Under the pieces are notes generated by a model that searched no databases, had not been told where the DNA came from, and saw only the letters and a program-made list of their open reading frames with translations. Both the position numbers and the translations under genes were made by a program. Shown one piece after another: positions 1,767 through 59,204 of a stretch of DNA of 64,000 nucleotides (position 1 is the stretch's first letter; every line of letters starts with the position of its first letter). Origin of the DNA: Planctomycetota bacterium (GTDB lineage: Bacteria; Planctomycetota; UBA1135; UBA2386); assembly GCA_044230075.1 (NCBI GenBank), contig JBGARS010000016.1, positions 533-64,532 of the forward strand, given 5' to 3'.

Positions 1767-2672
1767 TCACGGATACAGCGCCGTGACTGCGCTGGTATGA
1801 GCGAAGCCGTCGACCGCCATCGGGTCGAACACGCCCCACTGGAACGACAGCGGAAAGCCCTGCCAGATCGGGTCGTTCGGAATGAACAGCGTGTGGGTGG
1901 CGCCGCCGACGAACGGACTCGTGTGGGACTTGGTGACGACCGGCAGCAGGATCTCCGGCGTGACCCATACGTCGGCCCAACCGATCGATACGCCGCCTGG
2001 GATGGGCACGCCGAGCACGAGCACGGCGAGCACGTTGCGAGCCGCATCGTCGAGCCAGACGTCGATCGGACTCTGGACCGCTGGCCAGCCGGTGACGCCG
2101 ATCGTCGGCACGCCATACTGCCCCGGCTTGCCGGTGCCGTAGTTGGTGATCGTGCCGGCCGCGAACGGTGCGAACAGCCGGTACTTGCCGGGCACCATGC
2201 CCATCGCGTGCCAGGTGTTGCCGTCGGAGTAACGCGTCTCGATCAGCACGTTCGCCGGGTCGTTGTCGGCACTGACCGAGTGCTGCGGGAACATGCCCTG
2301 CACGCGCCACACCAGGAAGTAGTCCTGGCCCGCCTGCACGGGGGCCACCTGCGCGAACGTCGCGCCTTGCCAGCAGCGCGCGTGCGTCGTCGTCCAGTTG
2401 CCGGCCTGACCGACCAACATGTCCGGCAGGCCGGTCGCCGCATTGCGGGTCCGGATCTCCACCGAGTGCAGCGCCGGCGGCTGGTTGCCGGTGAACACCT
2501 GCGCCGCGGCCAGCGACGTGGTCGCCGATGCCGTGAAACGGAAGGCGATCACGCTGCTGGGCCAGCCGACGGCGTAGCTGCCGTAGGAGAGGTTGTCGTT
2601 CGCGGCGTCGAGAAGCTGTTGGGCAGGCAGGCAGCCAGCCGCGCACAGCACCAGTGGCAGGAGAGGGCGCAT
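1767..2672 (-). CDS. Secreted protein with beta-sandwich-like domain and shared C-terminal domain
   Basis: Signal peptide MRPLLPLVLCAAGCLPA|QQ; C-terminal region starts YGTGKPGQYGVP and ends FQWGVFDP...HTSAV. Confidence 0.75.
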   Translation of the reverse strand: MRPLLPLVLCAAGCLPAQQLLDAANDNLSYGSYAVGWPSSVIAFRFTASATTSLAAAQVFTGNQPPALHSVEIRTRNAATGLPDMLVGQAGNWTTTHARCWQGATFAQVAPVQAGQDYFLVWRVQGMFPQHSVSADNDPANVLIETRYSDGNTWHAMGMVPGKYRLFAPFAAGTITNYGTGKPGQYGVPTIGVTGWPAVQSPIDVWLDDAARNVLAVLVLGVPIPGGVSIGWADVWVTPEILLPVVTKSHTSPFVGGATHTLFIPNDPIWQGFPLSFQWGVFDPMAVDGFAHTSAVTALYP

Positions 2673-2729
2673 GCCCAGCAGTCTGGCCGCGGACCGTGTC
2701 GGCGGGCAAGGGGGTGGTGCGCCGAACCG

Positions 2730-3593
2730 TCACGCGATCGCCGTGCGGCGGTGCGACAGCACGCTCGCGGCGACGACGCTGCCGATGATCGAGGCGCCGC
2801 CGGCGACGGCCAGCGGGTGCGGTGTCTCGCCGAGCACGACGAAGGTGATCACCGGATTCAGCGCCGGCTCGATCATCAGCAGCAGCGAGGTGCGCACCGC
2901 GGCCACGTGTCGGATCGCCGAGGCCAGCACGACGTAGGCGATGCCGACCTGGAACACGCCCAGCACGCCGATGACGATCCAGTCGTGTGCGGTGCCGAGC
3001 ACCGGCGTCTGCCCGGCGAATGGCATCAGCAGAAACGCCAGCGGCATCGCGAACGTGTTGCTCCAGGCCAGCGCGGCACTGGTCTCGTCGGGACCACTCC
3101 GGGTGAGCCACCGCATGCCCATCAGCAGCAGCGCGAAGCTGATGCCCGAGGCGAGCGCGAACAGATCGCCCGTGCGCGGATCCGGCGCCGTGCGCTGCAC
3201 GGTCGTCGGCGCCAGGAAGCACAGCGACATGCCTGCGGCGACACCGGCGAACACCAACAGGTCGCGGCGTGTCGCGCGTTCGCGGAGCAGCAGAGGTGCG
3301 AACACCAGCACCCACATCGGCGCCGTCGACTGCAGGAAGATGGCGTTCGCGGAGGTGGTCAGTGTGTTGGCGATCACGAACAGCACCGTGGCGCCGAAGT
3401 ACGGCAGCACGAGCCGGAGGATGCGCAGGTTCGGCCATCGCCGCGCCGTTGGCAGCAGCACGAACAGCGTCACCGCGGCGATGCCGGTACGCAGGCCCGC
3501 ACGCTGCAGGGACGGGAAGTCGCAGCTCTTCAACAGCGCCCCGCCGGAGGCGAACAGGGCGCCGGCGAGCAGTACGCGCAGGGTCGGCGGCAC
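2730..3593 (-). CDS. EamA/DMT family transporter
   Basis: About ten hydrophobic segments; ANAIFLQSTAPMW and SLLLMIEPALNPV motifs; GTG start at 3593 chosen. Confidence 0.88.
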   Translation of the reverse strand: MPPTLRVLLAGALFASGGALLKSCDFPSLQRAGLRTGIAAVTLFVLLPTARRWPNLRILRLVLPYFGATVLFVIANTLTTSANAIFLQSTAPMWVLVFAPLLLRERATRRDLLVFAGVAAGMSLCFLAPTTVQRTAPDPRTGDLFALASGISFALLLMGMRWLTRSGPDETSAALAWSNTFAMPLAFLLMPFAGQTPVLGTAHDWIVIGVLGVFQVGIAYVVLASAIRHVAAVRTSLLLMIEPALNPVITFVVLGETPHPLAVAGGASIIGSVVAASVLSHRRTAIA

Positions 3594-3692
3594 GCGCGGC
3601 GTTCTCCCACAACCGCGTCCCGGAGTCCATCGGGGTGGCGCACCGGCCTGGACTGGAATCGGACTCCGCTCCCGGCCACCCTGGCGCTCGCC

Positions 3693-4478: not shown

Positions 4479-4498
4479 GCGTCGTCCCGGCGCGGCGA

Positions 4499-5815
4499 TC
4501 AGCGCCCGCCACGCAGCCGCAGCAGCGCCGCTTCCAGCACCGGATCCCGTTCGTCGAAGTCACCGGGTTTGGCCGCCACGTAGATGTGCGGCGTGATCCC
4601 CTCGCCTTCGAAGCAACTGCCGTCGGGGCGCAGCGCCTGCCAGCTCGGCAGCAGCACCGCGAGTCCCGGCAGCAGCGTGTGTGCCTGTGGGTTGCCGGAA
4701 CTGCCGTACGTCGTGGCGCCGACCAGCAGCGCGCGCGGCGACTGCTTCATCATCAACAGGAACGCCTCGCTGCTCGACATGTTCAGCGGCCCCGTCAGCA
4801 CGGCGACCTGGCCCTGGAACACATCCGGTGGCCCGTTGCCACGCAGACGCCGATCCTGCCGTTCGCCGAAGCCGTCGGCCGCCTTCGGATCGCACGAACG
4901 GTGCGCGGCGTAGACGACCTCGCCCTCGACGAAGAACCCCGCCAGCCGCTGCGCCAGCTGTTCGTCGCCGCCGGTGTTGCCGCGCAGGTCGAGCACCATG
5001 GCCTTGCAGGTCATCAGGCTGCGCAGCGCCTCGAGCAGGCGATCGAACTCGTCGCGCTGTTCGCGCGCAAACGTGCCGACGAACAGGTAGCCGATCTCGT
5101 CGTCGGTACGCGCCAGGAGGCCGACGCGGCCGATCTGCTGCAGCTTCGGCAACGCGCGCTGCAGCGCGCGTGCGTCGAAGTTCGCGACCACCTCGCGGCG
5201 CGCGGTCGGCAGCGTGGCGCCTTGCCACTGCACCGCGACGTGTACGTCCTGGGCGGTCGCCAGCAGCTCGCTGATGTGCAGCGCGAGCGAAGCGCCGCTG
5301 CGCGAGGCCTCCAGTCGTTCCCGGTGCGTGCGGTCGAGTTCGCTCCAGTCGATGCCGAGGCGATCGCGGTAGGCATACTGATCGTGCAGGGCGACGAACA
5401 GGCGGTCCACGGCGGCCCGCGCGGCGCCTTCGGCCAGTGCCGCGCCCTTGGTCGCGATGCGCCAGGGCGTCGCCGCCAGTCGTCGACCGCCCGCGCTGCG
5501 GAAGCCGGCTGACTCGGCGCAGGCGAGGTCCATCGCGTAGACGTGATCGGGCTCCAAGGTGGCGTCGAGCAGGAACGTGCGATCGTTCTCCCAGCTCGGC
5601 GTGCCGGCGTTCGGGAAGCTCGGGCCGCCGCCGCACAGGCCGTAGACTCCCGGATCCATCGCCTGATCGAACTGCACCAGCAGCTGTCGCACGATCGTGG
5701 CATCGACTTCCGCGGCGAGGTGGGGTGGGTCGAGTCGCACCACGGCTGGTGGTGCCTGCGCGACCGCGAACGAGGCGGCGAGGGCCACACTGACCACGGT
5801 CGGGAAGTGGTTCAT
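4499..5815 (-). CDS. Secreted S41-family peptidase with N-terminal Ig-like (Big_5/SbsA-like) domain
   Basis: Signal peptide ...SFAVA|QAP; DLRGNTGG, MSSSE (catalytic Ser), TYGSSGNP, FEGEGITP. ATG overlaps the tgpA stop at 5812-5815. Confidence 0.85.
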   Translation of the reverse strand: MNHFPTVVSVALAASFAVAQAPPAVVRLDPPHLAAEVDATIVRQLLVQFDQAMDPGVYGLCGGGPSFPNAGTPSWENDRTFLLDATLEPDHVYAMDLACAESAGFRSAGGRRLAATPWRIATKGAALAEGAARAAVDRLFVALHDQYAYRDRLGIDWSELDRTHRERLEASRSGASLALHISELLATAQDVHVAVQWQGATLPTARREVVANFDARALQRALPKLQQIGRVGLLARTDDEIGYLFVGTFAREQRDEFDRLLEALRSLMTCKAMVLDLRGNTGGDEQLAQRLAGFFVEGEVVYAAHRSCDPKAADGFGERQDRRLRGNGPPDVFQGQVAVLTGPLNMSSSEAFLLMMKQSPRALLVGATTYGSSGNPQAHTLLPGLAVLLPSWQALRPDGSCFEGEGITPHIYVAAKPGDFDERDPVLEAALLRLRGGR

Positions 5816-8698: not shown

Positions 8699-8708
8699 GA
8701 TGGCGCCG

Positions 8709-19184: not shown

Positions 19185-19973
19185 TCAATCCAGCTCGAGC
19201 CCGCGCTCTTCCTCTTCGGTGATGCCTTCGCCGAACGAGCTGCCGAGGTAGACGCGGCGCACCTGTTCGTCGTTGACGATCGTCTGCGCGTCGCCGTCGG
19301 CGATCACCTTGCCCTGGTTGATGATGTAGGCGCGGTGGGTGATGCGCAGCGTGGCGATCACGTTGTGCTCGGTGATCAGGATCGCGATGCCGGTACGCGC
19401 CAGCGCGGCGAGGATCTGCTGGATCTCCTCGACCGTGATCGGATCGACGCCGGCGAATGGTTCGTCGAGCAGCAGCAGCGCCGGCTCGGTGGCCAGCGCG
19501 CGGGCGATCTCCAGCCGCCGCTTCTCGCCACCCGACATCGTCTCCGCGATCGAGCCGGCGACGTGCGTCAGCTGCAGGTCGTGCAGCAGCGCGCGGGCGC
19601 GTTCCTCGCGTGGCTTCTTGCGCATGCCGCGCGCCTCGAGCACGCAGCGGATGTTGTCGAGCGCCGACATCTTCTTGAACACCGACTCCTGCTGCGCGAG
19701 GTAGCCGAGGCCCCGGCGCGCGCGGCGGTACATCGGCTGCTTCGTCACGTCCTGGCCACCGAGCATCACCGTGCCGGCGTTGGGTGTGACCATGCCGACG
19801 ACCATGCGGAAGGTGGTCGTCTTGCCGGCGCCGTTCGGGCCGAGCAGGCCGACGATCTCGCCCTCGTTGACGCAGATGCTGACCTGGTCGACGACGCGGC
19901 GGCCGCCGTAGGACTTGACCAGCGCGTTGGTGCGCAGGATCTCGTCGCCGGGAGCGGCGTCGCGATCGCTCAT
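19185..19973 (-). CDS. lptB: LPS export ABC transporter ATP-binding protein
   Basis: LVKSYGGRRVV, GLLGPNGAGKTTTF, GLGYLAQ, SGGEKRRLEIARAL, LDEPFAGVDPI, ITEHNV. Confidence 0.92.
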   Translation of the reverse strand: MSDRDAAPGDEILRTNALVKSYGGRRVVDQVSICVNEGEIVGLLGPNGAGKTTTFRMVVGMVTPNAGTVMLGGQDVTKQPMYRRARRGLGYLAQQESVFKKMSALDNIRCVLEARGMRKKPREERARALLHDLQLTHVAGSIAETMSGGEKRRLEIARALATEPALLLLDEPFAGVDPITVEEIQQILAALARTGIAILITEHNVIATLRITHRAYIINQGKVIADGDAQTIVNDEQVRRVYLGSSFGEGITEEEERGLELD

Positions 19974-21631
19974 CGCACGAACCCGAAGCGGTCCGGCCAG
20001 TTGCTGCCGAGCAGCCAGGACAGTGGCCGCGAGGGGTAGAACACGAGGATCGCGCGGCCCTGGATGTCGTCGCGCGGCACGAACGGCACCTTGGTCTCGG
20101 GCGGCGTCCAATCCCCGTCCTGCGAGCCGGGCTTGACGAAGCTGATGCGCTGGCCCCAGTCCGGGCCGACCTCGGCCTGGAGGCGCAGCAGTTCGCCGAA
20201 CTCGTCGATCATGACGATGCAGTGCCGGCTCGGGATGCCGATCGGCGTCTCGTCGCGGTCGGGCTGCCGATCCAGTGGCATCGCGCGCTTGTTGCCGCGC
20301 ACGATGCGCGCGCCCGGCGTGTCCGGCGGCACGACCTGGTCGTCGGCGTCGACGCCGATCGTGACCGCGGTCCAGTCGCGCGAGTCGATCGACTGCAGCG
20401 TGTTGTCGCCCATCATGAAGTAGTGCCCGTCGGGCACCTCGATGACCTCGGGCGAGCCGGCGCGCGTGTAGTGCTGGTCGCGATCGAGCCGCAGGTCGTC
20501 GAGGCGGACCTTGCCCTTGCCCTTCATCGCGATCTGCGGCACGACGCAGTGTTCGGGCTTGGCGGCGCCGGGCACGCCGAGTTCGCAACCTTCGCGGCAG
20601 GCCCACTGCGCCGTGTCGAAGCGCTGCACCTCGGCGCCGTCGCGCCAGGCGATCAACTGGTCGTCGACGTGGGCGAAACCGAGTTCGGCGCCGCTGTCCG
20701 GCGCCACGTCACAGGCGAACTCGGATGACTCACCGAGCACCTGCGTATCCTTGGCGCGCACCTGCAGGCGCCCCTTGCCGGCGCGCACGACCAGCGCGAA
20801 GGTCAGCTTGTCCTTGCCCGGGCGGCGCACCTCGATCTCGAGCGCCAGTTCGTCCAACTGCTGCTCCGGCACCACGCGCACCTGCAGCCGCGCGTCGGGC
20901 ACGATCTCCTGGGGCCGTTCGCTCGGGTTCTTGTCGCGGATCTGGCGGGCCGTCGCCTCCGGGTAGCCGTCCCAGACGCGGTCGACGAAGCCGCCGTCGT
21001 CCTCGTCGCGGAAGAACAGGCGCGCGGTGCCGTCGAGCGCGACCGCGAAGCCGGCGTCGTCCTCGCTGAACGCGCGTGACGGCGAACCCGCGAACGAGTT
21101 GCCGAGCGCCCTGCTCTCGGCACGCACGATCCGTCGCGCGGGATAGACGTTCTTCCACATCACCGCCTGCACGTCGTCGGGCTTGCGCAGGATGGTGTAG
21201 CTGCGCTCGCCGCCCTGGTCGGCGACCTGGTAGACGTTGCCACCGGCGATGTGCAGGTGATCGTTCGGCATGCCGACCATGCGCTTGACGTAGAGCTGGT
21301 TCTTCTGCAGCGGGTACTGGAACACCGTGATGTCCCAGCGCTTCGGCTCGCGGATCGTCGGCAGGAACTTGTCGACCAGGATGCGATCGAACACCTGCGC
21401 CTCGCTGCTGCCCATCAGCGTCGGCTGCATCGACGAGGTCGGGATCTGGTAGGCCTCGATGCAGAACCACTTCAGCAGCACGGCGGCGAGGATCGCGACG
21501 CCGAATGCCTCGAGGTTGGTGCGGATCGGCCCCATCGTCGGCGCCTTCTTCTGCTTGCCGCCGGTGGCGGCGACGGCGACTGCTGCCTCCGCCACCGCGA
21601 GGCTCACCGCTTCGCTGTCTGGTCCTGCCAT
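19970..21631 (-). CDS. lepB: Signal peptidase I, enlarged (553 aa)
   Basis: IPTSSMQPTL (Ser), YVKRMVG (Lys), YFMMGDNT..S.DSRDW, IQGRA; large insertion between the catalytic boxes. Confidence 0.9.
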   Translation of the reverse strand: MAGPDSEAVSLAVAEAAVAVAATGGKQKKAPTMGPIRTNLEAFGVAILAAVLLKWFCIEAYQIPTSSMQPTLMGSSEAQVFDRILVDKFLPTIREPKRWDITVFQYPLQKNQLYVKRMVGMPNDHLHIAGGNVYQVADQGGERSYTILRKPDDVQAVMWKNVYPARRIVRAESRALGNSFAGSPSRAFSEDDAGFAVALDGTARLFFRDEDDGGFVDRVWDGYPEATARQIRDKNPSERPQEIVPDARLQVRVVPEQQLDELALEIEVRRPGKDKLTFALVVRAGKGRLQVRAKDTQVLGESSEFACDVAPDSGAELGFAHVDDQLIAWRDGAEVQRFDTAQWACREGCELGVPGAAKPEHCVVPQIAMKGKGKVRLDDLRLDRDQHYTRAGSPEVIEVPDGHYFMMGDNTLQSIDSRDWTAVTIGVDADDQVVPPDTPGARIVRGNKRAMPLDRQPDRDETPIGIPSRHCIVMIDEFGELLRLQAEVGPDWGQRISFVKPGSQDGDWTPPETKVPFVPRDDIQGRAILVFYPSRPLSWLLGSNWPDRFGFVR

Positions 21632-23663: not shown

Positions 23664-25214
23664 TCAGAAGCTGCCGGCGGTCAGCAGCAGCGCGTTCGTC
23701 GCGGTGATCGCGACCCAGCCGCCGAGAGCGTCGATCTCGATAGGCACCATCTGATGGTGGAAGCTCACGCCGACCAGCGGCGGCGTGCCGGGAAGGAACA
23801 GTGTCGACTGCGCCATGCCCGTCGAGGTCGAGAGTAGTTGGACGATGTCGGGGGCGACCAGTACGTCACAGCCGGCTACGCCCTCGGCGAACAGTGAGGA
23901 CAGCGGCGCGCTGCCTTGCGGGATCGCAGTCACGCTGGTCAGCGCGACGACGAGCGCGATCGTCGGCAGGCCGCTGCCCGTCGCGCGAAACGTCGTGTCG
24001 ACCCACGGCAGCGTCGCCGCCGCCAACGTGTTGTCGCCGCCGCTGCCGGGGCAGCCGAAGCCACCGACCGTGGCGGTGGCCGGACATGTGGTCGTCAGCC
24101 GAGCGAGTTCACAGCTGGTGGTCGCGGCGTAGTTGCCGCTCCCGACCAGGTCGCCGTTCGGCAGCACCGTCAGCGCGCTGACGGTGAACTGCCAGCCGGT
24201 CCCGAGCGCACTCCACGTGCCGGTGCCGGCGTTCCAGCGGGCGATGCTCATGGCCGGCACTCCGCCGGCGCTCGTGAACGTGCCGGCGACGGCGAGGTCG
24301 CCGCCGGCCAGCGTGGTCAGCGCGCTGACGCTGGCGGCCAGCGGAAAGCCCTGTTCGACGCCTAGCCCCAGCGGTGCCCAGGTCGAGCCGCTCCATCGCG
24401 CGATGCGGCGCGCGGTGGCGCCACCTGCGGTCGTGAACGTGCCACCGACGACGATGTCGCCGTTCGCGAGGCTGGCCAGTGCGTTGGCCTGGGCGAGGGT
24501 GCCGGCCGGAAAGACGCCGAGGCCGGTGCCGAGCGGCGCCCACGTCGCGCCGTTCCAGCTCGCGATGTGGTTCATCGTGACGCTGCCGGAGTTCGTGAAG
24601 CTGCCGGCCACGATCACCTCGCCGGTCGATCGCGCCGTGATCGCCCGGACCCAGCCATAGGTGTTGATGCCGCCGCCGAGCGGGCTCCACGAGCTGCCGT
24701 CCCAGCGCGCGACGTTGGCGGCCAGAAAGCCGCCTGCCTGGCTGAAGTGGCCACCGGCGATCAGGTCGCCGTTCGGCAGCACGTGCAGCGCCAACACTTC
24801 TCCGTTCATGCCGACACTCATCGGCGCCCACGCGGAACCGTCCCAGCGCGCGACATGGTTGGACCGCAGGCCGCCGGCGTGTTCGAAGTAGCCGCCGGCG
24901 ACGACGTCGCCATTCGGCAGCACCGCGAGCGCGGCGACGATGTCGTCCATGCCGCTGCCCATCGGGGTCCAGTTCGCGCCGTCCCAGCGGGCGACGTACG
25001 CGGCGGCGACGCCACCGAACGTGGTGAAGGTGCCGCCGGCCACGATGTCGCCGTTCGGCAGCGCGGCGAGTACCAATGGTGCCGAGCCTGGGCACTGTGG
25101 CCACTCGGACCATTGCGTCGCGCACTGGGCATGCACGTCGGCGGCGAGCGACAACACGGCGGCCAGCAGCGGGACGGACGAGCGACGGATGGACGGGATC
25201 ATGGGCGAGATCAT
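23664..25214 (-). CDS. Secreted beta-propeller-like repeat protein (W..G.G.N..V.AL..LPNGD.VAGG.F repeats) with shared C-terminal domain
   Basis: Signal peptide ...ADVHA|QC; about seven ~48-aa repeats; C-terminal region starts GFGCPGSGG. TGATG overlap with the upstream stop. Confidence 0.85.
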   Translation of the reverse strand: MISPMIPSIRRSSVPLLAAVLSLAADVHAQCATQWSEWPQCPGSAPLVLAALPNGDIVAGGTFTTFGGVAAAYVARWDGANWTPMGSGMDDIVAALAVLPNGDVVAGGYFEHAGGLRSNHVARWDGSAWAPMSVGMNGEVLALHVLPNGDLIAGGHFSQAGGFLAANVARWDGSSWSPLGGGINTYGWVRAITARSTGEVIVAGSFTNSGSVTMNHIASWNGATWAPLGTGLGVFPAGTLAQANALASLANGDIVVGGTFTTAGGATARRIARWSGSTWAPLGLGVEQGFPLAASVSALTTLAGGDLAVAGTFTSAGGVPAMSIARWNAGTGTWSALGTGWQFTVSALTVLPNGDLVGSGNYAATTSCELARLTTTCPATATVGGFGCPGSGGDNTLAAATLPWVDTTFRATGSGLPTIALVVALTSVTAIPQGSAPLSSLFAEGVAGCDVLVAPDIVQLLSTSTGMAQSTLFLPGTPPLVGVSFHHQMVPIEIDALGGWVAITATNALLLTAGSF

Positions 25215-27433
25215 CAGCGCACGCCGATCGTGCCGGTTAGCAGGTTGCCAGTGGCGATGCGCGGCTGCGCGAAGTCCCAGCTGAAACCCTGCAGGAACAG
25301 CCGGTCGCCGACGAAGCCAGGTTCTTCGGGCAGGTCGAGCGACACGGTCGCGGCGCCGCCGCCGGTCGCCTGCATGTAGAGCGGAACGATCGGCTGGGTC
25401 CGCAGCGCGCAGTCCGGCGAGCCGAGCACGTCGAGCAACAACGGCAACGGCACCCCGTCCCATTGCTGGTCGTCGAAACCGACCCAGGCGATCGGCAGCA
25501 CGAAGAACGTGTCCGGCAGGTTGGTCAACTCGAGGCGCGTCACCGTGCCGATCGCCAGCGGGTCGAGCGCCGTCAGCGTCAGCGACCCGTTGCCGCTGTT
25601 ACAGCCCGGACCTGTGCTCGTCCAGCTGCCGAGCGTCGTGTCGCGCAGCCGCCACATCTCACCGCGCGCGACCGAGCCGCCGAACAGCACCACCTCGCGC
25701 CGCACGGGGTCGTAGGCGGCGGTGGCGTCCGATCCGGCGTCGGGGTGGTGCGCGGTGGACAGCAGCGTCCAGTCGAGGCCGTCCCACAGCCACGTGTCGT
25801 GCAGCTGCGTTCCATTGGTGCCGCCGTAGACGATCGTGCGCTGCAGATGGCTGTCGTAGACCTGCACGTGGCCCGATCGCGCCGGCGGCGACGTCATGGG
25901 TGTGATCGGCAGCCATTGCACGCCGTCGAATTCCCACGTATCGCCGAACGTCGCGCCGACGCCGTTCGTGCCGCCGAACAGCACCACGCGGTCGCGCGCC
26001 GCGTCGTAGCTCATGCCCGCGTCCCGGCGCGGCGCCGGTCCGGTCGCCGGGGTCAGCTCCGACCACGTCAGGCCGTTCCAAGCCCAGAGATCCGCGACCG
26101 CCGGCTGCAGGGCCTGACCGCCGAAGATCAGCATCCTGGCGCGCAGGCGGTCGTAGACAGCCGAGTGATTGCGGCGCCCCTGCGGCGCGAACGAAGGCGT
26201 CGCGTAGTTCCAGGTGCCGTTGCCGTTCCACTCCAGGACGTAGCTCGCGTACTGCGATTCGCCGCCGAGCAGCACGGTGACCGCGCGGCTCTCGTCGTAC
26301 ACCATCGTGTGGCCGGCGCGGCCGGTGCCGCCACTGCCGCTGCTGCCGAGGAACCACTGGCGGTCCGCCAGCTCCCATGTCTCGTAGAGGTCCGAGTTGG
26401 CGCGTCCGCCGTAAAGCACCATGCGCTGCCGTGCAACGTCGTAGGCCATCGCGGCGTTGGCCCGACCCATCGGCGGCCCCAGCGCGACCAGCTTCCAGGC
26501 CATGGCCTCGAGTTCCCATGTGTTCGTGAGCTGCCGGGTCGCCGAGAACGACAGGACGTCGAGCGCGACGACGCGTTGGCGTGCGACGTCGTAGACGCGC
26601 AGCTGCGAAGCGAGCGGCGTGATCGGCGTGCCGACCAGCGTCCAGCCGTTGCCTGCCCACGCGTAGACCGTCGCCTCCTCGTTGAACCCGACCCGGGGGT
26701 GCGGCAACAGGACACGCTGCGAGCCGGCGTCGTAGATCGGCTGTCCCGACGCGCCGGCCGGCAGACCGCTGTTGTCGCGGCTCTGCCAGGAGATGCCGTC
26801 CCACGCGCGCAGGCCCGTGCCGTTCGAGCTGAGCAGCTCGCCGCGGGCTTCGTCGTAGACGAGCCGACCGAACGACGATGGCTCGGACCCCGGTACCGAG
26901 AGAGTCCACGTCGCCCCGTCGAACTCCCACATCGTCACCGAGGAGCCGCCACTGGCGGACACGGAGCCTCCGATCAGGACGACACGATCGCGCCCGGGGT
27001 CGTAGGCCATGGCGTGACCTGCCGTCGGCGGCGGCGACGCCGTCGGCGCGAGCTGGGTCCAGCCGTTTGCGTCGAACGCCCAGGTGTCGTTGCGCAGACC
27101 CGAGGCATCGTTGCCGCCGAACAGCACCAACCGTTGCCGCATCGAATCGTAGGCTGTCGCGTGGCTGCTGCGCGGCGACGGAGATACGTCGAGGTCGAGG
27201 CGGCGCCATCCACCGTCGTAGAGCCAGGTGTCGCCGTATGGTTCCTGTTGGCTGCCGCCGAACAGCACCGTCGTCGCCATCGCCGCATCGTACGTGAACG
27301 TGGCTCCCGTTCGCCCGGGGGGCGATTCATCGAGCTGCCAGTCGATATCGGCGAACGACTGCGCTGACAGTGCGCCTGCGAACATCACGAACGCGGCGAG
27401 GCACAGTGCGGACAGGTTGGAGTTCGTCATCAC
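25214..27433 (-). CDS. Secreted kelch-like repeat protein with shared C-terminal domain
   Basis: Signal peptide ...ALSA|QS; repeats of PP.R..HAMAYD..R.RVVLFGG...DTW.FDG..W; C-terminal region starts GPGCNSGNG. Confidence 0.87.
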   Translation of the reverse strand: MMTNSNLSALCLAAFVMFAGALSAQSFADIDWQLDESPPGRTGATFTYDAAMATTVLFGGSQQEPYGDTWLYDGGWRRLDLDVSPSPRSSHATAYDSMRQRLVLFGGNDASGLRNDTWAFDANGWTQLAPTASPPPTAGHAMAYDPGRDRVVLIGGSVSASGGSSVTMWEFDGATWTLSVPGSEPSSFGRLVYDEARGELLSSNGTGLRAWDGISWQSRDNSGLPAGASGQPIYDAGSQRVLLPHPRVGFNEEATVYAWAGNGWTLVGTPITPLASQLRVYDVARQRVVALDVLSFSATRQLTNTWELEAMAWKLVALGPPMGRANAAMAYDVARQRMVLYGGRANSDLYETWELADRQWFLGSSGSGGTGRAGHTMVYDESRAVTVLLGGESQYASYVLEWNGNGTWNYATPSFAPQGRRNHSAVYDRLRARMLIFGGQALQPAVADLWAWNGLTWSELTPATGPAPRRDAGMSYDAARDRVVLFGGTNGVGATFGDTWEFDGVQWLPITPMTSPPARSGHVQVYDSHLQRTIVYGGTNGTQLHDTWLWDGLDWTLLSTAHHPDAGSDATAAYDPVRREVVLFGGSVARGEMWRLRDTTLGSWTSTGPGCNSGNGSLTLTALDPLAIGTVTRLELTNLPDTFFVLPIAWVGFDDQQWDGVPLPLLLDVLGSPDCALRTQPIVPLYMQATGGGAATVSLDLPEEPGFVGDRLFLQGFSWDFAQPRIATGNLLTGTIGVR

Positions 27434-29685
27434 CGGGCTCCGAATGTCAGCGTGACACCGTTGCTCGTGGTCAGCTCACCTGTCAGCGGCTCGAACACGA
27501 AGCCCTGGCAGTGGATTGCCGTGCCGAGGAACGAAGGCTCGTAAGGGATCGCGATGTCGGCGATCGCCCCGCCGTGTCCGTCGTTGACGGCCGGCAGCGG
27601 CGCATCGAGCGAGATCAGGACCGAACGGCCTGGCCAGCCGAGCCAGCCGAGGTCGACCGTCGGCTGCAATCGGGCCGCGCCGAACCACAGGCCGGGCAGT
27701 GGCAGGCCCGGTAACGGACCGTAGGCGAGACGGCAGGTCTCGCCGAGCCACGGTTGCGCGCCGGTGCCGTGCAGCACCAGCGGACCGAGCGGGCTGACCG
27801 ATGCCTCGCCGAACGACTCGAGGTCGGCCACGAATGGCGTGCGCAGCAACCACTCGGTGGCGTTCAGCGCCGGACTGCCGACGAATCCGGGCAGCGTGCC
27901 GCCCAGCAGGTGGATGCCGTCCGGAGCGCCGACGAGCACGGGCTGGTTCGCCTGCGGCGTCGTGATCACGGCGATCTGCGTCCACGCGATTCCATCCCAT
28001 TGCCACACCTGCTGTGGCTGGTTGTACACGTAGAGATGCGCGACGACGGCCTGCCGCGCGAGGTCGTAGGCCATCGAAACCACTGTGCTCCCCGGCAGCG
28101 CGCCGCCCGAGAACACCTGCCAGTTCTGACCATCGAACTCCCAGGTGTCGTTCGTGGCGCCCCCGGACTGCTGTCCACCGAGCAGCACGATGCGGTCTCG
28201 CCGAGCATCGTATGCCATGCCCGGGGCCGCGCGCGGATGCGGCCGGAAGGTCGGGTGCAGTTCGGTCCAGGCGGTTCCGTCCCATGCCCACATGTCGTCG
28301 AGCTTCGAAGACGGCGACGACGCGGCGACGCCACCGAACATCACGACCCGCTCGCGCTGTCGGTCGTAGACGACGCCGACATCGTGACGCCCCGTGGGAC
28401 CGGCCGCGGTGATCTTCTGCCATTGGCTGCCATTCGCGCGCCACAGCTCGAACACGCTGTCGGCGCCGCCGACCAGCAACACGGCGTCACGCGCTTCGTC
28501 GTAGACGAGCCGGTTGCCGGACGACGTCGACGGATGTTGCCCGGGCAGCGTGAACGAGGGCTTCGGGATGCGCAGATCCCAACGCCCCTCTTCGCGCACC
28601 CAGAGGTCGGTCAGTGAGCCGTTCAAGCCGCCGAACACGAACGTGCGATCGTGCACGGTGTCGGTTGCGGCCGTATGGCCGTACCGCGCACCGGGTGGGG
28701 CCCAACTGCGCCGTTGCCACTGCACGCCGTCCCACTCCCACACGCTGGAGTCCAGCGACGTCCCGGGTCGGCTGGCACCCACGAACACGAGGCGAGCACG
28801 CGCCGTGTCGAACACGACGATCGGCTGAAAGGAATACGGCCCGTCCGCGGTCAATGGCTGCCACGAGAAATCGCTCGCCTGCCACGCGTAGACGGTCGGA
28901 GGCGCAGCGGAGCCGAAGCTCTGCCCCGCCACCAAGAGCAGCCGTTGCTGGGCCGCGTCGAATGCCAGCCGGTATCCCGACAACGACGAGAACGACGGGC
29001 CGACTTGCTGGGTCCAGCTCGTGCCGTTCCAGCGCCACAAGCCGCCGTTGCTGCCAGGACCACGGAACAGCGCCGTCGTCGCCGTGCTCGGGTCGTAGAC
29101 CATTGCCAGTGGCGTCACCCACTGCGGCCAGTTCGGTCCCTGGGTCGGCACCTGTGCCCAGTCTGTACCGTCGAATTCCCAAACCTGCCCGTAGCTGCCG
29201 CCGCTGGTGCCACCCCACAGCATGACGCGATCGCGCGCCGCGTCGTACACCATGGCCGAGTCGAGCAGTGATCCCGGCGCGTGCGCGGTGACGATCTCGG
29301 TCCAGTCGGCGCCGTCCCACGCCCAGGTGTCGAAGGTCGTGTGGGCCTGCGACGAGGGCGGCGGGTTCGGCGTCTCCCCGCCGAACAGCACGACCCGCTG
29401 TCGCAAGGAGTCGTAGGCCATCACATGACGGCGGCGCGCGCTCGGTCGGTGCGCGGGCGACAGCTCCGTCCACGTGGATCCGTCCCAGACCCAGCAGTCG
29501 TCGCGCGGCACACCGTCGTCACCCCCGAACAGGATCGTGTATCCATGCGCCTGGTCGTAGACCGCGTCGCTCTGACTGCGACTGGTCAGATCGTGACGCT
29601 GACTCCATTGCGCCTGCGCAGCGATGCTCGCGCACGCCACGAACTGCAGAAAGGCAGTGATTCCGACTCTCCACAGCGGATTCAT
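27430..29685 (-). CDS. Secreted kelch-like repeat protein with shared C-terminal domain
   Basis: Signal peptide ...AAQA|QW; same repeat type; ends HCQGFVFEP...TSNGVTLTFGAR. ATGA overlap with the downstream gene. Confidence 0.87.
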   Translation of the reverse strand: MNPLWRVGITAFLQFVACASIAAQAQWSQRHDLTSRSQSDAVYDQAHGYTILFGGDDGVPRDDCWVWDGSTWTELSPAHRPSARRRHVMAYDSLRQRVVLFGGETPNPPPSSQAHTTFDTWAWDGADWTEIVTAHAPGSLLDSAMVYDAARDRVMLWGGTSGGSYGQVWEFDGTDWAQVPTQGPNWPQWVTPLAMVYDPSTATTALFRGPGSNGGLWRWNGTSWTQQVGPSFSSLSGYRLAFDAAQQRLLLVAGQSFGSAAPPTVYAWQASDFSWQPLTADGPYSFQPIVVFDTARARLVFVGASRPGTSLDSSVWEWDGVQWQRRSWAPPGARYGHTAATDTVHDRTFVFGGLNGSLTDLWVREEGRWDLRIPKPSFTLPGQHPSTSSGNRLVYDEARDAVLLVGGADSVFELWRANGSQWQKITAAGPTGRHDVGVVYDRQRERVVMFGGVAASSPSSKLDDMWAWDGTAWTELHPTFRPHPRAAPGMAYDARRDRIVLLGGQQSGGATNDTWEFDGQNWQVFSGGALPGSTVVSMAYDLARQAVVAHLYVYNQPQQVWQWDGIAWTQIAVITTPQANQPVLVGAPDGIHLLGGTLPGFVGSPALNATEWLLRTPFVADLESFGEASVSPLGPLVLHGTGAQPWLGETCRLAYGPLPGLPLPGLWFGAARLQPTVDLGWLGWPGRSVLISLDAPLPAVNDGHGGAIADIAIPYEPSFLGTAIHCQGFVFEPLTGELTTSNGVTLTFGAR

Positions 29686-30870: not shown

Positions 30871-32505
30871 TCAGCGCGGGCGCGGCGGCACCGGCAGCGG
30901 CTCGGCCTCGACCCACGAGCGTTTCGTCGCGTCGGGTCCCGGCTCGAAGCCGTAGCTGGCCGCCGGGTCGAACGCGGCCCGATCGGCGGCGTCGAACAGC
31001 ACCACGACGAGCGCGTGGTCGTCCTTCCACCACTGCCAGCGGCTGTCGAGAGCGACGTCGAGCGGCGGGTTCCCGTCGGCGGTCAGTCGCCCGCTGCGGT
31101 CGGTGTCGGCCAGGAAGCGCGTCACCGCATCGAGGTCGGGCAGGCCCTCGACGCGCGCCACCAGGCCGAATGCCCGGTTGCGGCGGAACCACTGGTGCAC
31201 GTCCTCCGGCACGTCGGGGCCGTCGCCCCAGTGCACCGCGGTGAGCCGCGCCCCCGGCGGCGGCAGCGGCGGATTCGCCTGCGTGCAGTGCGGCCCGAAC
31301 GCGTCGCGCAGCGTCAGCGTCGAGTACGGGTTTCTGCCGCCGAAGTGATCGTCGTAGCGGCGCAGCGTCTGGCGGCGACCGATTGTGTCGGCCATGCGCG
31401 CATCGGCCCAGTCGGAGAACGTCGCCACGTGCGTGATGAGCCCGAACAGTTGCGGGTCGGCGATGTCCTGGCCGAGGTGGTCGGAGTTCAGCCGGCGCCA
31501 GCGGCCACCGACGAACACCTCGTTGAACGAATGCGACGACCACGCCCCGATCTGCTTGGCGATCGCGGCGGTGACACTGGCGTGCAGGGCGTGATGTGTG
31601 ATGCCGCGAGCGAGCATGGCGCGTTGCCGTGCGTCGTTGGCGTCGACGACCGGGATGCACAGCACGGTGCGTGTCGGCACGCCGAGCGCGCGCAGGCAGC
31701 CGTTCAGGTAGATCGACGTCGACGAGCAGCTGCCGCGCCGGCGCTGCTCGAACATGCCGCGCGCCGAGATGTCGTGCTGCCACTGCTGCGCCATCTCTGC
31801 CGGATCGCTCGGCAGCGCCGCGGCGAGTTCGGCCGGCACGAATGGCTTGCCCGCGGCGTCGAACGCGGTCGCGAACGCCAGGAAGCAGTCGTTCGGTCGC
31901 GTGCGCTGACACAGCCAGCGCGAGACTCGTTCGACCAGCGTGCGGTCGTCGAGCTGTGCCACGTCGATGCCGTCCGCGGCCAGCGCGGCGACCAGCGCGT
32001 CGCGCATCGCCGGCGTCCAGTCCGCGGTCGGACCGGGGCGCGTCCATTCGGTCATGCCGGCCGCCGTGCGGCGCCAGTTCGCGTCGGCGGGAATCGACCC
32101 GGCGACGGTGGTGAACGGGTAGTGGATCACCTCCAGCTCGACGTAGTCGTCGGTCTCGTCGAGCACGCGCGCGTCCTGGTGATCGTCGCACAGGTAGTCG
32201 ATCGTCACCGGCCGCATCACCTGCACGACGCTGCGCACCATGTACTGGTACTCGCGCCGTTCGCGCCAGTCCCCGTCGGGCACGCCGTCGCCGTCGCTGT
32301 CGGCCTTGGCCGGGTCTGTCCGGTACTTGTGGACCTCGGCGAAGTCCGAGAGCCCGTCGCCGTCGCTGTCACGATCGGCATTGCCTTGTGCCACCACCGC
32401 GCTGGCCAGCGCGAACACCACCACCGCGCTGACCAGCGCGCTCACCGTCACCGCGCTGGCCAGCGCGAACACCACCAACGCGGCACAGCTTGTCGTGGCA
32501 CTCAT
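30871..32505 (-). CDS. Secreted transglutaminase-like protein with DxDxDG Ca-binding repeats
   Basis: Signal peptide ...SAVVA|QG; DRDSDGDGLSD and ADSDGDGVPD; GSCSSTS...LRALGVPTR; HSFNEVFVGGRWRRLN. Confidence 0.8.
   Translation of the reverse strand: MSATTSCAALVVFALASAVTVSALVSAVVVFALASAVVAQGNADRDSDGDGLSDFAEVHKYRTDPAKADSDGDGVPDGDWRERREYQYMVRSVVQVMRPVTIDYLCDDHQDARVLDETDDYVELEVIHYPFTTVAGSIPADANWRRTAAGMTEWTRPGPTADWTPAMRDALVAALAADGIDVAQLDDRTLVERVSRWLCQRTRPNDCFLAFATAFDAAGKPFVPAELAAALPSDPAEMAQQWQHDISARGMFEQRRRGSCSSTSIYLNGCLRALGVPTRTVLCIPVVDANDARQRAMLARGITHHALHASVTAAIAKQIGAWSSHSFNEVFVGGRWRRLNSDHLGQDIADPQLFGLITHVATFSDWADARMADTIGRRQTLRRYDDHFGGRNPYSTLTLRDAFGPHCTQANPPLPPPGARLTAVHWGDGPDVPEDVHQWFRRNRAFGLVARVEGLPDLDAVTRFLADTDRSGRLTADGNPPLDVALDSRWQWWKDDHALVVVLFDAADRAAFDPAASYGFEPGPDATKRSWVEAEPLPVPPRPR
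30876..31074. repeat. 199-bp imperfect direct repeat, copy B (3' end of the transglutaminase-like gene)
   Basis: See copy A. Confidence 0.92.
32395..32475. repeat. 3 x 27-nt tandem repeat within the signal-peptide coding sequence
   Basis: caccgcgctggccagcgcgaacaccac / caccgcgctgaccagcgcgctcaccgt / caccgcgctggccagcgcgaacaccac. Confidence 0.9.
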
Positions 32506-48038: not shown

Positions 48039-49301
48039 CTACTTGCTGCCGCGGGCGTCGGGCGGCGTCGGCAACGTCGCGGCAGCCGGTGTTTCGCCGG
48101 CCGGCCGAGGCAGCGTGAGCGTCGAGCGCGCTGCGGTCACCGCACCGACCTCCGGCACCAGGAAGCCACCGTTCTGCAGGTAGAAGCGCTCGCCGCGCAC
48201 CCCCGCCGAACGATCGAGCCGCTGCGCGTCGCCGTGGCCGTCGTGCGTGAAGCGCGCCGTCGTCAGCGGCAGCCATTCGCCGGCCGTCGTGCGCGCCCAG
48301 GCGTTGCCGAACTCGCAGTCGCGCAGCAGATCGCCGTTGCTGCCGGAGAAGTTCTCGTTGAACGAGTAGAGCCCGCGCAGCAGCTTGCCGTCCTTCGGCG
48401 CGCGGAAGCTCGCGATCAGTCCCCAACGCTGTTCGGCATCGAACCAGAACCAGCCGGTGTACGTCGTGTGCGTGCCGTCGGCGGCCGCGTGCAGCAGGAA
48501 GCGGAACGTTCTGCCGAGCTGCCAATCGTGCACCAGGTGGCTGTGCCCGCCGGTGCCTTCGTGGCCGAAGCCGCTCGCGACCACGTCCTCGCCCTTCGCG
48601 ACCAGCGTGACCCGGTCGTCGGCCGCGACCTTGTCCCGATCCACGCCTTCGTTGCCGGCGTCCCACACGCTGAAGATCAGCCGCCGTTCGGTCGGACTGT
48701 TGACCTGCATGCCGAAGTAGCCGCGCTGCCAGCCCGCCGCCATGTAGTACGTGTAGAGCGGGTCCGTGCGCGGCGTGACCTCGCAGTAGAACCACTCGAT
48801 GTCCTGCTGGTGTTCCTTCGGCAGCGGGTAGCCGAGGTGCACCGACGCCGCGTTGCGCCGTTCGACGTCGCTCACGTGCGCGTTCGCGACCGCGGGGCCG
48901 GCCAGGTGGAGGCGCGCCAGCGAAGCGATGGGCGAGCCGTCCTTCGTGCGCACCGTCAGGCAGTGGTAGCCGGTGGTCGTGATCGCGAACGCCCGCTCAT
49001 CGTCGTCCGCGGTTGCGCACGCTGTGCCAGCTGGATGCGCCGCGCACGTGACCACCAGGCCCGCGGCCGCCACCTGGCTGGCGGTCCGGAGTTCGACCTG
49101 CAGCGCGCCGGTCTGCCGCAACAGCACGTAGAACCGCAGTTCTCCCTGGCAGTTCGCGACCGTGCCGTCGTCGTGCCGTTCCACCGCGTTGGCATCCGGG
49201 TGCGCGAACCCCGTGAACGCTGGCAGCGTCAGTTCCTGCGCGCGCGGCGCCGCGAGAGCCAGGGTCGGAAGCAGGCAGAGGAGCGCGGCAGACGGCCTCA
49301 T
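48039..49301 (-). CDS. Secreted DUF3472/DUF5077-like protein
   Basis: Signal peptide ...APRA|QE; ASVHL.Y, WFYCEV, TYYMA.GW..GYFGMQVNSPTERR.IFSVWD, SF.ENF. Confidence 0.82.
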   Translation of the reverse strand: MRPSAALLCLLPTLALAAPRAQELTLPAFTGFAHPDANAVERHDDGTVANCQGELRFYVLLRQTGALQVELRTASQVAAAGLVVTCAAHPAGTACATADDDERAFAITTTGYHCLTVRTKDGSPIASLARLHLAGPAVANAHVSDVERRNAASVHLGYPLPKEHQQDIEWFYCEVTPRTDPLYTYYMAAGWQRGYFGMQVNSPTERRLIFSVWDAGNEGVDRDKVAADDRVTLVAKGEDVVASGFGHEGTGGHSHLVHDWQLGRTFRFLLHAAADGTHTTYTGWFWFDAEQRWGLIASFRAPKDGKLLRGLYSFNENFSGSNGDLLRDCEFGNAWARTTAGEWLPLTTARFTHDGHGDAQRLDRSAGVRGERFYLQNGGFLVPEVGAVTAARSTLTLPRPAGETPAAATLPTPPDARGSK

Positions 49302-52177: not shown

Positions 52178-52234
52178 CAAAGGACCGTGAGACCGAACCA
52201 CACCGTCGCCTTTCCAGGCAACCACGAGGAGTAG

Positions 52235-54673
<2,439 letters not shown>

Positions 54674-54681
54674 CGCGCGCC

Positions 54682-54708
54682 GTGGAGCCTCGCCTGCGGG
54701 GGCTCCAC
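54682..54708. terminator. Hairpin between convergent katG and arsG
   Basis: GTGGAGCC...GGCTCCAC stem. Confidence 0.55.
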
Positions 54709-54735
54709 GTTCGCCAGCATGCGCCGCGGCGCGCG

Positions 54736-55431: not shown

Positions 55432-55435
55432 CCGG

Positions 55436-55903
55436 TCAGTTCCTGCCCAGGTAGTGCTCTACGGGTTCGCGCACGTAGGCGAAGAACTCGTCCGGCTCGT
55501 CGAGCAGCAGCCAGACGTCCTGCTGATTCGTCCACTCCGTCTCCGTGCCGTTCTCGTGGTGCGAGACGATCACCGTCTTGTTGGCGATCTCGTAGTCGTC
55601 GACGAAGTGCCGATTCTCGGGGCGATCGGTGTTCAGTACCCGGAACACGACGGCGCCGCTGGCGACCTCGTCCGGGAAGCCCGCCTCGATTGCCTGGCGA
55701 CTCAGCCTCTCGATCGTGCGGCACGAGTCGCAGCGCACATCGGTCGTGAAGTAGGTGACGACCACCGTCGCCGCCGTGTTCTCGGCATCGGATCCCGTGG
55801 CCGGCAGGGTGTCGCGCGGCTGTGCCTTCTGCAGCGCGTAGACACCGAGGCTGCCGAACACGATCCCCAGCAGCACCCAGCGCAGCACGGACTTGGCGGG
55901 CAT
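55436..55903 (-). CDS. arsF: ArsF-like thioredoxin-fold protein
   Basis: N-terminal TM helix; VVTYF...RCDSCRTIE CxxC. Confidence 0.75.
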   Translation of the reverse strand: MPAKSVLRWVLLGIVFGSLGVYALQKAQPRDTLPATGSDAENTAATVVVTYFTTDVRCDSCRTIERLSRQAIEAGFPDEVASGAVVFRVLNTDRPENRHFVDDYEIANKTVIVSHHENGTETEWTNQQDVWLLLDEPDEFFAYVREPVEHYLGRN

Positions 55904-55911
55904 CGGGGCCT

Positions 55912-56151: not shown

Positions 56152-56160
56152 GATCGATTC

Positions 56161-57471: not shown

Positions 57472-57487
57472 CGCGTCGCTCCGTTCG

Positions 57488-57802
57488 TCAGCTGCAACAC
57501 GTGCGCACCTCGACCTGCCGGCCCCTGGCCGCAGCCAGAAGGCAATTCGCGAAGGTCGCCACGCATGGCAGCGCCAGACGGTAGACGACCCGGTTGCCCT
57601 GCTTCGTGCTGGCGACGATGCCGGCGTCACGCAGCACGGCGAGATGCTCGGAGACGGTGCTCCACGACGATCCCACCAGTTCGCGCAGCTCGTGGACGCA
57701 GGCGTCGCTGTGGGCCAGTGCCTGTGCGATCTGCAGGCGCGCGTCGTGCCCGAGGGCGCGGAACACGCGCACGGGATCGATGGTGAGACCGCTCGAAGTC
57801 AC
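57488..57802 (-). CDS. arsR: ArsR/SmtB-family repressor
   Basis: FRALGH.ARL, CVHEL, STVSEHLAVLRDAGIV, VVYRL; C-terminal CCS. Confidence 0.9.
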   Translation of the reverse strand: MTSSGLTIDPVRVFRALGHDARLQIAQALAHSDACVHELRELVGSSWSTVSEHLAVLRDAGIVASTKQGNRVVYRLALPCVATFANCLLAAARGRQVEVRTCCS

Positions 57803-57887
57803 GCCGGGATCGTGCGCCGTTTCGCCAGATGACGAAATGCGGACTAGAGCCCCTTCGCGCGGTGACTTGGGAGCAGCCGCACCGGGA

Positions 57888-59204
57888 TCAGCCCTGCGGC
57901 TGGATCATGTGCACGTCGCGCTGCGGGAACGGGATCGAGATCCCCTCCTTGTCGAAGCGCTGCTTGACGGCCTTGTGGAACTCCCAGTGCAGCGCCCAGT
58001 AGTCGCTCGTCTTGACCCACGGCCGGGCGACGAAGTTCACCGACGAGTCGCCCAACTCGTGCACCTCGACGACCGGTGCCGGGTCCTTCAGCACCTTCGG
58101 GTGCGTGGTGAAGATCTCGGTCAGCACGGCCTTCACCTTGTCGAGGTCGTCGCCGTAGCTGACGCCGAATTTCAGGTCGAGGCGGCGCGTCGGGTTGGCG
58201 GTGACGTTGGTGATGACGCCGCCCCAGATCGAGCCGTTCGGCACGACGATCAGCTGGTTGTCGGGCGTCTTGATCGACGTCGACACCAGGTTCATCGACG
58301 CGACGGTGCCCGACACGCCGGCCGCGGTGACGTAGTCGCCGATGTCGTACGGGCGGTAGATCAGCACCATGATGCCGGCGGCGAAGTTCTGCAGCGTGCC
58401 CTGCAGCGCGAAGCCGATGATGAAGCCGGCGGCGCCGATCGCGGCGACCAGCGGCGCGATGTTGACGCCGATGTAGGACAGCGCGATCACGATGCCGACG
58501 AACGACACCAGCTTGCGCGTCGCGTTGACGCAGAAGTCGCGCAGCAGATCGGAGGTCTTCTTCAGCCGCCGCACGGCACGATCGAGCAGCCCGGCGAGGA
58601 TCGCCGCGAGGATGCGGAACGCAATCAGCACGCCGAGGAACTGACCGATGCTGATCAACAGGCGCAGGCCGCCGTCGACGGAGAACAGCCAGGCCTTGGC
58701 CTCGGACCACGCGGACTGCAGGCCGGTCACCTCGAGCTGCACGCCGCCGCTGATCGAGTCGACGTACTTCCGGGCCTCCTCGGTGTCGACGCCCTTGTCC
58801 TTCGCAGTCTCGATCACCGCGCGGACCCGCTCGACGATGGCGTCGCGCTCGGCGCGCAGTGCGACGAGTTGCTGGCTCAGGCGATCGATGTCGGCGTTGT
58901 TGCCAGCGGCCTCCGTCGTGCGGCGCCCGATCTCGGTCGCGGCGAGTTCCATGGCCTTGGCCTGCAACGTGCCGAGCCACGCTTCGAGCCGCTGCTCGAT
59001 CTCGGCCTTGCGCATCGGCCGCAGCTCCGACCGGAGGTTCGCGGGGTCGACCTTCGGATCCTGGACGATCGCCGGCACCGACGCGGCGGGCTTCGCTTCG
59101 GGCGGCGGCTGTTGCGGTGCGGCCTGCGCGCCGGCGGGCAGGGCGAAACAAGCCAGGGCGAACGCCGTGGCGACGGCGACGCTCACGCGACGGGGGCTGG
59201 GCAT
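57888..59204 (-). CDS. mscS: MscS-family mechanosensitive channel with exported N-terminal domain
   Basis: Signal peptide ...PAGA|QA; GFIIGFALQGTLQNFAAG, RPYDIGD, VPNGSIW, FDKEGISIPFPQRDVH. Confidence 0.9.
   Translation of the reverse strand: MPSPRRVSVAVATAFALACFALPAGAQAAPQQPPPEAKPAASVPAIVQDPKVDPANLRSELRPMRKAEIEQRLEAWLGTLQAKAMELAATEIGRRTTEAAGNNADIDRLSQQLVALRAERDAIVERVRAVIETAKDKGVDTEEARKYVDSISGGVQLEVTGLQSAWSEAKAWLFSVDGGLRLLISIGQFLGVLIAFRILAAILAGLLDRAVRRLKKTSDLLRDFCVNATRKLVSFVGIVIALSYIGVNIAPLVAAIGAAGFIIGFALQGTLQNFAAGIMVLIYRPYDIGDYVTAAGVSGTVASMNLVSTSIKTPDNQLIVVPNGSIWGGVITNVTANPTRRLDLKFGVSYGDDLDKVKAVLTEIFTTHPKVLKDPAPVVEVHELGDSSVNFVARPWVKTSDYWALHWEFHKAVKQRFDKEGISIPFPQRDVHMIQPQG

Follow-up and report, generated by a model that had tools for sequence, protein, structure and literature searches.

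A strict glutamine-first rule for predicted exported proteins and tandem putative glutaminyl cyclases in a lineage of Planctomycetota

Introduction

The closest described system is that of Porphyromonas gingivalis, where the Q-rule, under which most substrates of signal peptidase I (SPI) carry Gln as the first residue after the cut (+1), is combined with a lipoprotein glutaminyl cyclase, PgQC (PG2157) (Bochtler et al. 2018, PMC5837995; Szczesniak et al. 2023, PMC10653852). Published Q-values for Bacteroidetes, that is, the share of substrates with Gln at +1, average 71% and reach a maximum of 88% (PMC5837995, PMC10653852). Published accounts confine the rule and the essential cyclase behind it to Bacteroidetes and regard them as a selective target for drugs against periodontal pathogens. 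The rule has been stated to be exclusive to Bacteroidetes (PMC10653852) and not to be shared by related phyla, the groups surveyed being Chlorobi, Spirochaetes, Chlamydiae and Cyanobacteria, with scattered outliers such as Ignavibacterium (PMC5837995). Planctomycetota lie outside the groups surveyed in that study. Here, we analyze a 64,000-nucleotide stretch of DNA (the window; C77:533-64532) from the draft genome of a Planctomycetota bacterium (the host; 5.3 Mb, 70% GC, 182 contigs), for which an initial annotation had claimed that every protein of the SPI type exposes Gln at +1.

The host resembles Bacteroidetes in that most SPI substrates carry Gln at +1 regardless of their final compartment, that lipoproteins are exempt and begin with Cys, that a type II (M28-fold) cyclase bears a lipoprotein signal like PgQC, and that many exopeptidases are exported, which fits the protection hypothesis. 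It differs in its phylum, the system being known here from sequence alone, and in features that are new: a near-total strictness that seems at least equal to that of Bacteroidetes (26 of 26 proteins versus the published mean of 71% and maximum of 88%), a preference for Leu at -3, a cyclase duplicated in tandem in the host family, and an animal-like Glu-Glu pair of Zn ligands where the bacteroidal enzyme has Glu-Asp. New as well are varied +1 preferences within the phylum. We read it as a system already known, found in a phylum new to it, which contradicts the published claim of exclusivity.

Results

Gln at +1 in the window

Genes were called with a codon-usage caller and signal peptides with a simple detector of n-region and h-region (hydrophobic core), with Pfam checks where calls mattered. 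The caller applied a criterion on GC content at third codon positions (GC3); antisense open reading frames (ORFs), revealed by Pfam, were partly corrected and errors remain at 70% GC. Translation of each site showed that all eight verifiable SPI-type proteins in the window expose Gln after a small residue. These proteins belong to unrelated families according to Pfam, and the number of SPI-type window proteins without Gln at +1 is zero. The relevant features are as follows, with the cut marked by an arrow.

2622..2672 (-): signal peptide MRPLLPLVLCAAGCLPA↓QQLL of a 301-aa protein (1767-2672); Gln codon 2619-2621; translation, weak DUF4082 match
5759..5815 (-): signal peptide …ASFAVA↓QAPP of an S41 (C-terminal processing) peptidase (4499-5815); Gln codon 5756-5758; PF03572, 7e-27
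25128..25214 (-): signal peptide …AADVHA↓QCAT of a beta-propeller protein (23664-25214); Gln codon 25125-25127; translation and Pfam
27362..27433 (-): signal peptide …AGALSA↓QSFA of a Kelch-repeat protein (25214-27433, GTG start); Gln codon 27359-27361
29611..29685 (-): signal peptide …IAAQA↓QWSQ of a Kelch-repeat protein (27430-29685); Gln codon 29608-29610
32389..32505 (-): signal peptide …ALASAVVA↓QGNA (39 residues) of a transglutaminase-like protein (30871-32505); Gln codon 32386-32388
49239..49301 (-): signal peptide …LALAAPRA↓QELT of a DUF3472 protein (48039-49301); Gln codon 49236-49238; PF11958, 1e-89
59127..59204 (-): signal peptide …FALPAGA↓QAAP of an MscS-family channel (57888-59204); Gln codon 59124-59126; translation and Pfam
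55823..55903 (-): candidate signal peptide or signal anchor …VYALQKA↓QPRD of a 155-aa protein (55436-55903); no Pfam family
19970..21607 (-): signal peptidase I (LepB, 545 aa), adjoining lepA; TIGR02227, 4e-28

The first of these proteins also has a weak lipobox-like AAGC, which leaves its assignment to SPI or signal peptidase II (SPII) ambiguous and SPII processing possible. For the Kelch-repeat protein at 27430-29685, the other possible cut (IAA↓QAQ) likewise exposes Gln. Of the nine sites listed in the initial annotation, eight were thus borne out by translation at the coordinates given there, and only the ninth, an MAA↓Q "remnant", could not be located. Its general claim about SPI-type proteins in the window holds and gains an additional candidate absent from its list, the 155-aa protein at 55436-55903 (-). 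It was also right that the other exported proteins carry a lipobox, namely the M3 peptidase (LAAC), the product of 42399-43802 (GSAC), the Cys-rich protein (LTSC) and perhaps KatG, which shows GAAC from an upstream start.

Some of these genes have peculiarities of their own. The katG gene (52382-54673, +) gains its lipoprotein signal only if translation is taken to begin at an ATG further upstream, at 52238 (52238-52381); from that start, KatG would be an exported, lipid-anchored catalase-peroxidase. In the signal peptide at 32389-32505 (-), the hydrophobic core contains the same segment twice (VVFALASAV…VVFALASAV). LepB (19970-21607, -) is unusually long at 545 aa and lies directly downstream of lepA; its match to TIGR02227 comes in two separate parts, suggestive of a large insertion.

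Gln at +1 across the host genome

Gln makes up ~4% of the proteome. In loose signal-peptide candidates, by comparison, the polar residue nearest to the end of the hydrophobic core is Gln in 54% of cases versus 2-17% for any other residue, and Ala precedes this Gln in 250 of 327. Since a count of first polar residues misses sites of the kind A-R-A↓Q, we relied instead on a semi-blind expectation-maximization (EM) model and on a window test of the c-region. Fully unsupervised EM on 847 loose candidates recovered L-x-A-Q from three of four random starts (Q = 0.46), and the fourth start again found an A-Q core in a shifted register. The motif discovered without supervision places Gln at +1, in line with the cleavage sites that had been assigned by eye.

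With a plain -3/-1 predictor, whether or not it included a hydrophobicity step, Gln came out at +1 in just 22-32% of candidates and was smeared over +1 to +4; the predictor was rejected and its values kept as lower bounds. The smearing arises because Ala-rich c-regions hold several A-x-A sites. As blind choice among these sites is ambiguous, only the +1 distribution was learned in the semi-blind EM, the site score being kept blind to +1; this yielded Q = 0.57 of 484 stricter candidates. The window test points the same way: [AGS]Q occurs in a 21-residue c-region window in 62% of 534 strict candidates, compared to 19% in windows of equal length placed further along these proteins (binomial tail ~1e-105). 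A logo of the aligned sites has L at -8/-7, L/A/V at -3, A (78%) at -1 and P (25%) at +3. At -3, Leu (39%) is preferred over Ala (26%) and Val (13%), the genome-wide consensus being L-x-A↓Q-x-P.

When 70 candidates lacking A-Q were drawn at random, nearly all proved to be cytoplasmic proteins, membrane anchors or prepilins. Most candidates without A-Q look like false positives, and 0.57 is thus a diluted lower bound.

As a positive control, 246 kb of Bacteroidaceae DNA was run through the same pipeline, giving 0.48 (n = 27) by model and ~70% by eye, and the method is therefore conservative. This control consists of two PLSDB "plasmid" records, OY726034.1 and NZ_OY725905.1, which we took as chromosome fragments. 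The gene content of NZ_OY725905.1 (Bacteroides finegoldii; rplS, rpoN, pnp, a SusC/SusD pair and a cyclase) suggests a piece of chromosome despite its plasmid label; for OY726034.1 (Phocaeicola massiliensis), nearly unannotated and with a cyclase homologue, the same is probable. Among the negative controls, Rhodopila (65% GC) showed Q = 0.15 and zero window excess, and a Phycisphaerae metagenome-assembled genome (MAG) and genome G050 showed Q = 0 each. The genome-wide frequency in the host is thus far above background and at least equal to that of the Bacteroidaceae control.

Protein sets chosen by family

Sets of exported proteins picked by family, irrespective of the N-terminus, gave the same picture. 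Gln stands at +1 in all seven exported M28 peptidases, in all four exported sulfatases (a fifth sulfatase is a polytopic membrane protein) and in all seven exported S9 peptidases, of which one also contains VLGC, a lipobox-like motif, and one is truncated at a contig end. Together with the window, 26 of 26 exported proteins expose Gln; treated as independent draws, they place the true Q-value at no less than ~0.89 (95% bound). Gln at +1 is therefore the majority state in both data sets (0.57 of the 484 diluted candidates and 26 of 26 in the family sets), where roughly 50% or more of SPI substrates marks a Q-rule. Nearly all exported proteins of the ordinary route are predicted to begin with Gln once the signal peptide is removed.

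Among the exported proteins of the host is also a large load of exopeptidases: M28 peptidases number seven or more, and S9 peptidases six or seven.

Two tandem homologues of type II glutaminyl cyclases

A search for glutaminyl cyclases in the host genome found two tandem type II (M28-fold) homologues with active-site motifs and conserved lipoprotein signals. They are two small, adjacent genes that stand out among nine M28 genes (QC1 and QC2; C165:7350-8363 and 8375-9388), and their best sequence matches in the PDB are solved glutaminyl cyclases (5e-31 to 1e-13), QC1 being the stronger. The closest solved relatives of QC1 are enzymes from an Acidobacteriales bacterium (7d18, 5e-31) and from Fimbriiglobus ruber (7d1b, 7e-28), released in 2021, with a TM score of ~0.8 (target-normalized) but an identity of only 28-29%; those entries describe isolated enzymes. 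They are followed by PgQC (6qql, 3e-24) and then by TfQC and the fly, human Golgi and human secretory enzymes, whereas ordinary aminopeptidases match QC1 at 5e-11 or worse. An AlphaFold model of QC1 (pLDDT 84, pTM 0.84) gave a consistent result: the Foldseek ranks 1-24 in the PDB are all cyclases, led by the Acidobacteriales and Fimbriiglobus enzymes, and the first aminopeptidase appears at rank 25.

Aligned to PgQC, whose residue roles were taken from PMC7948796, QC1 places Asp155 on Asp149, Glu187-Glu188 on Glu182-Asp183 and Trp299-His300 on Trp298-His299. The motifs for the ligands of the single Zn (Asp/Glu/His, with Asp in place of Glu in bacteroidal enzymes) and the catalytic Glu are invariant in 30 aligned and 120 of 120 scanned QC1 orthologues, and QC2 likewise has them. 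The Trp-His signature is found in QC1, in all 120 orthologues and in QC2 (which reads F-E-Q-W-W-H at this site), where true M28 aminopeptidases, such as the enzyme of genome G041, have Tyr-His instead. A second mark of cyclases, a Phe four positions before that Trp (Phe294 in PgQC; a small residue in aminopeptidases), is missing from QC1 together with its loop. A lipobox G-L-x-A-C is kept in 118 of 120 QC1 orthologues, which puts the true N-terminus of QC1 at MRTGS… and makes QC1 a lipoprotein. QC2 begins MPFATLLLLLAG↓C (LLLLAG↓C), also a lipoprotein signal. Both proteins are predicted to be tethered to the membrane on its periplasmic side.

The two genes of the tandem pair are ~40% identical paralogues; the pair occurs in almost every genome of the host family, and most other families of the order have a single copy.

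The type I cyclase profile PF05096 (Glu_cyclase_2) had no match in the whole host genome, with search controls behaving as expected. Type I cyclases, the plant and bacterial beta-propeller enzymes, perform the same reaction; PF05096 is present in some other Planctomycetota, and both Schlesneria genomes tested have one. Given the solved cyclase from the planctomycete Fimbriiglobus, M28-type cyclases were already known as enzymes in Planctomycetota. Our search of the literature on pyroglutamate or glutaminyl cyclase in Planctomycetes found nothing relevant and no link to a proteome-wide +1 Gln rule.

Distribution across the class and phylum

The nearest orthologues of several host proteins, the cyclases included, come from MAGs named "Planctomycetota bacterium" at NCBI. 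LepA, with best matches in Planctomycetia at 61% identity, was uninformative for taxonomy, so the placement rests on the names of the cyclase orthologues. One of these Planctomycetia MAGs appears to belong to the host order, its cyclase having contig coordinates identical to those in genome G204. The host class falls in the same phylum as the sampled Planctomycetota and outside Bacteroidetes. The lineage with the +1 Gln rule is thus Planctomycetota, not Bacteroidota nor another phylum of the Fibrobacteres-Chlorobi-Bacteroidetes group.

Cyclase orthologues were found in 39 of 41 close relatives and in 85 of 101 genomes of the host class (as sampled, a single order), compared to 18 of 121 genomes drawn evenly across the phylum. 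The +1 values of other genomes stem from sequence samples of 200-400 kb with 12-51 candidates each:

G013, same family as the host: cyclase present; Gln at +1 0.74
G028, same order, other family: cyclase present; Gln at +1 0.60 (~90% by inspection)
G131, another family: cyclase present; Gln at +1 0.58
G081 and G107, family f13: weaker cyclase homologue; Gln at +1 0.17-0.26, with mixed Glu/Ala/Gln
G047, another family: no QC1 match at E <= 1e-6, three small M28 genes; Gln at +1 0.29, plus ~50% Asp/Glu
G050, another family: nothing QC1-like at E <= 1e-15; Gln at +1 0, with Asp/Glu at +1

G013 and G028 follow the rule clearly. In these small samples, cyclase and rule go together well within the host class and imperfectly across the phylum. 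G029 was rejected as a cyclase-negative genome, as a truncated small M28 gene was found at a contig edge; the gap is therefore probably one of the assembly.

In G050 (C1 and C2, first 100 kb of each), ~11 of 12 clear signal peptides have Asp or Glu at +1 (…AGA↓DTAG, …AAA↓ENTV, …AAG↓ESKG) and none has Gln; this pattern would amount to an "acid rule" at +1.

Proposed mechanism and alternative explanations

We consider it probable (roughly 0.77) that the host follows a strict Q-rule in which LepB exposes Gln and the tandem cyclases cap exported proteins with pyroglutamate. Sec substrates would carry signal peptides ending in (L/A/V)-x-A, and the LepB encoded in the window would cut directly before Gln, leaving a Gln-first mature protein. 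Lipid-anchored QC1 and QC2, on the periplasmic side, would then turn the new N-terminal Gln into pyroglutamate, a cap that may shield periplasmic, outer-membrane and secreted proteins from aminopeptidases, the host's own exported exopeptidases included. The size of that exopeptidase load fits capping as self-protection. The +1 Gln rule, as well as the presence, conservation, active-site motifs and predicted location of the cyclases, come directly from the computations above; cyclisation itself, QC1 and QC2 as its agents, and protection from exopeptidases as its benefit would follow by analogy with the experiments in P. gingivalis. The suggestion of the initial annotation that the capping system of Bacteroidetes also operates in this lineage is supported to this extent by the rule and the cyclases, the pyroglutamate chemistry being carried over from the known case.

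Several points weigh against this interpretation. N-terminal Gln can also cyclise spontaneously, if slowly. Signal peptides were called with a gene caller and a predictor of our own making rather than with SignalP or LipoP, and the caller errs in a genome of 70% GC. The loop that bears Phe294 in PgQC is absent from QC1, as it is from the aligned Fimbriiglobus enzyme. The genomes of family f13 have a cyclase homologue yet a Q of only 0.17-0.26. Conversely, G041, a complete 3.1-Mb genome in which neither known cyclase type was found, is enriched in Gln (0.43 by model, ~12 of 15 by eye); its only M28 matches are an aminopeptidase with a PA domain and Tyr-His and a weak partial match in a 1681-aa ORF, and PF05096 has no match there. 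Finally, the N-termini of M28 peptidases in 12 cyclase-negative genomes of the order are mixed, some with Gln and some with Asp, in a small sample.

Some of these points would be explained if Gln at +1 were selected independently of cyclases, through a P1' preference of SPI or the Sec machinery or because spontaneous cyclisation suffices, with the cyclases serving narrower substrates. G041 and family f13 both speak for this, and Asp/Glu in G050 together with the Asp/Glu/Gln mix in G047 suggests that +1 residues are under lineage-specific selection in general. We nevertheless consider such independent selection unlikely, given a cyclase that is near-universal in the host class (85 of 101) with a strongly conserved active site and lipobox, the small samples (12-51 candidates) behind the other genomes, and a causal link shown experimentally in Bacteroidetes (PMC5837995, PMC10653852).

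Far less probable is that the rule is real while QC1 and QC2 are aminopeptidases, cyclisation being non-enzymatic or due to another enzyme. NCBI does label the orthologues "M28 family peptidase", NCBIfam gives weak aminopeptidase matches only, and the missing Phe294 loop would agree with this; yet the best matches in both sequence and structure are all experimentally named cyclases with aminopeptidases well below, the signature is Trp-His and not the Tyr-His of true M28 aminopeptidases, and several orthologues are named glutaminyl-peptide cyclotransferase by the Joint Genome Institute (JGI). That the rule arises artificially from site assignment by eye or by A-x-A in an Ala-rich, high-GC proteome, as the 22-32% of the purely blind predictor with its spread from +1 to +4 might suggest, is already largely refuted and hardly credible, since A↓Q is the strongest motif in unsupervised EM, Gln so dominates the first polar position (54% versus 2-17%), Rhodopila at similar GC lacks the excess, and the family-defined sets and window stand at 26 of 26.

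Implications

If the capping system operates as proposed, the same arrangement in an unrelated phylum implies that the trait is older or has evolved repeatedly. Planctomycetota would offer a natural comparative system, with lineages that have the rule, lack it or show other +1 preferences, and thereby a comparative test of why exported proteins are capped, setting aminopeptidase load against secretion-system type. In practice, tools that predict signal peptides, proteomics searches for N-termini and the production of planctomycete enzymes in foreign hosts should allow for N-terminal pyroglutamate on mature proteins.

More tentatively, and on balance rather doubtfully, the residue exposed by SPI could be a lineage-specific "code" in Planctomycetota, with Gln almost always in the host class, mostly Asp/Glu in G050 and partly in G047, and a Gln-rich pattern in the cyclase-less G041. 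Should the small samples hold, this would point to a third class of glutaminyl cyclase or to selection at +1 by something other than capping, for which a co-evolving signal-peptidase specificity or a periplasmic stability code resembling the N-end rule would be candidates.

Other features of the window

Two ORFs near the start of the window differ from the genes they contain. The + strand ORF at 2751-4478 is a chimera of reading frames, with an enoyl-CoA hydratase in its 3' part only (~3735-4478). On the - strand, an EamA transporter lies in the ORF at 2730-4022, the gene occupying the 3' part of that ORF.

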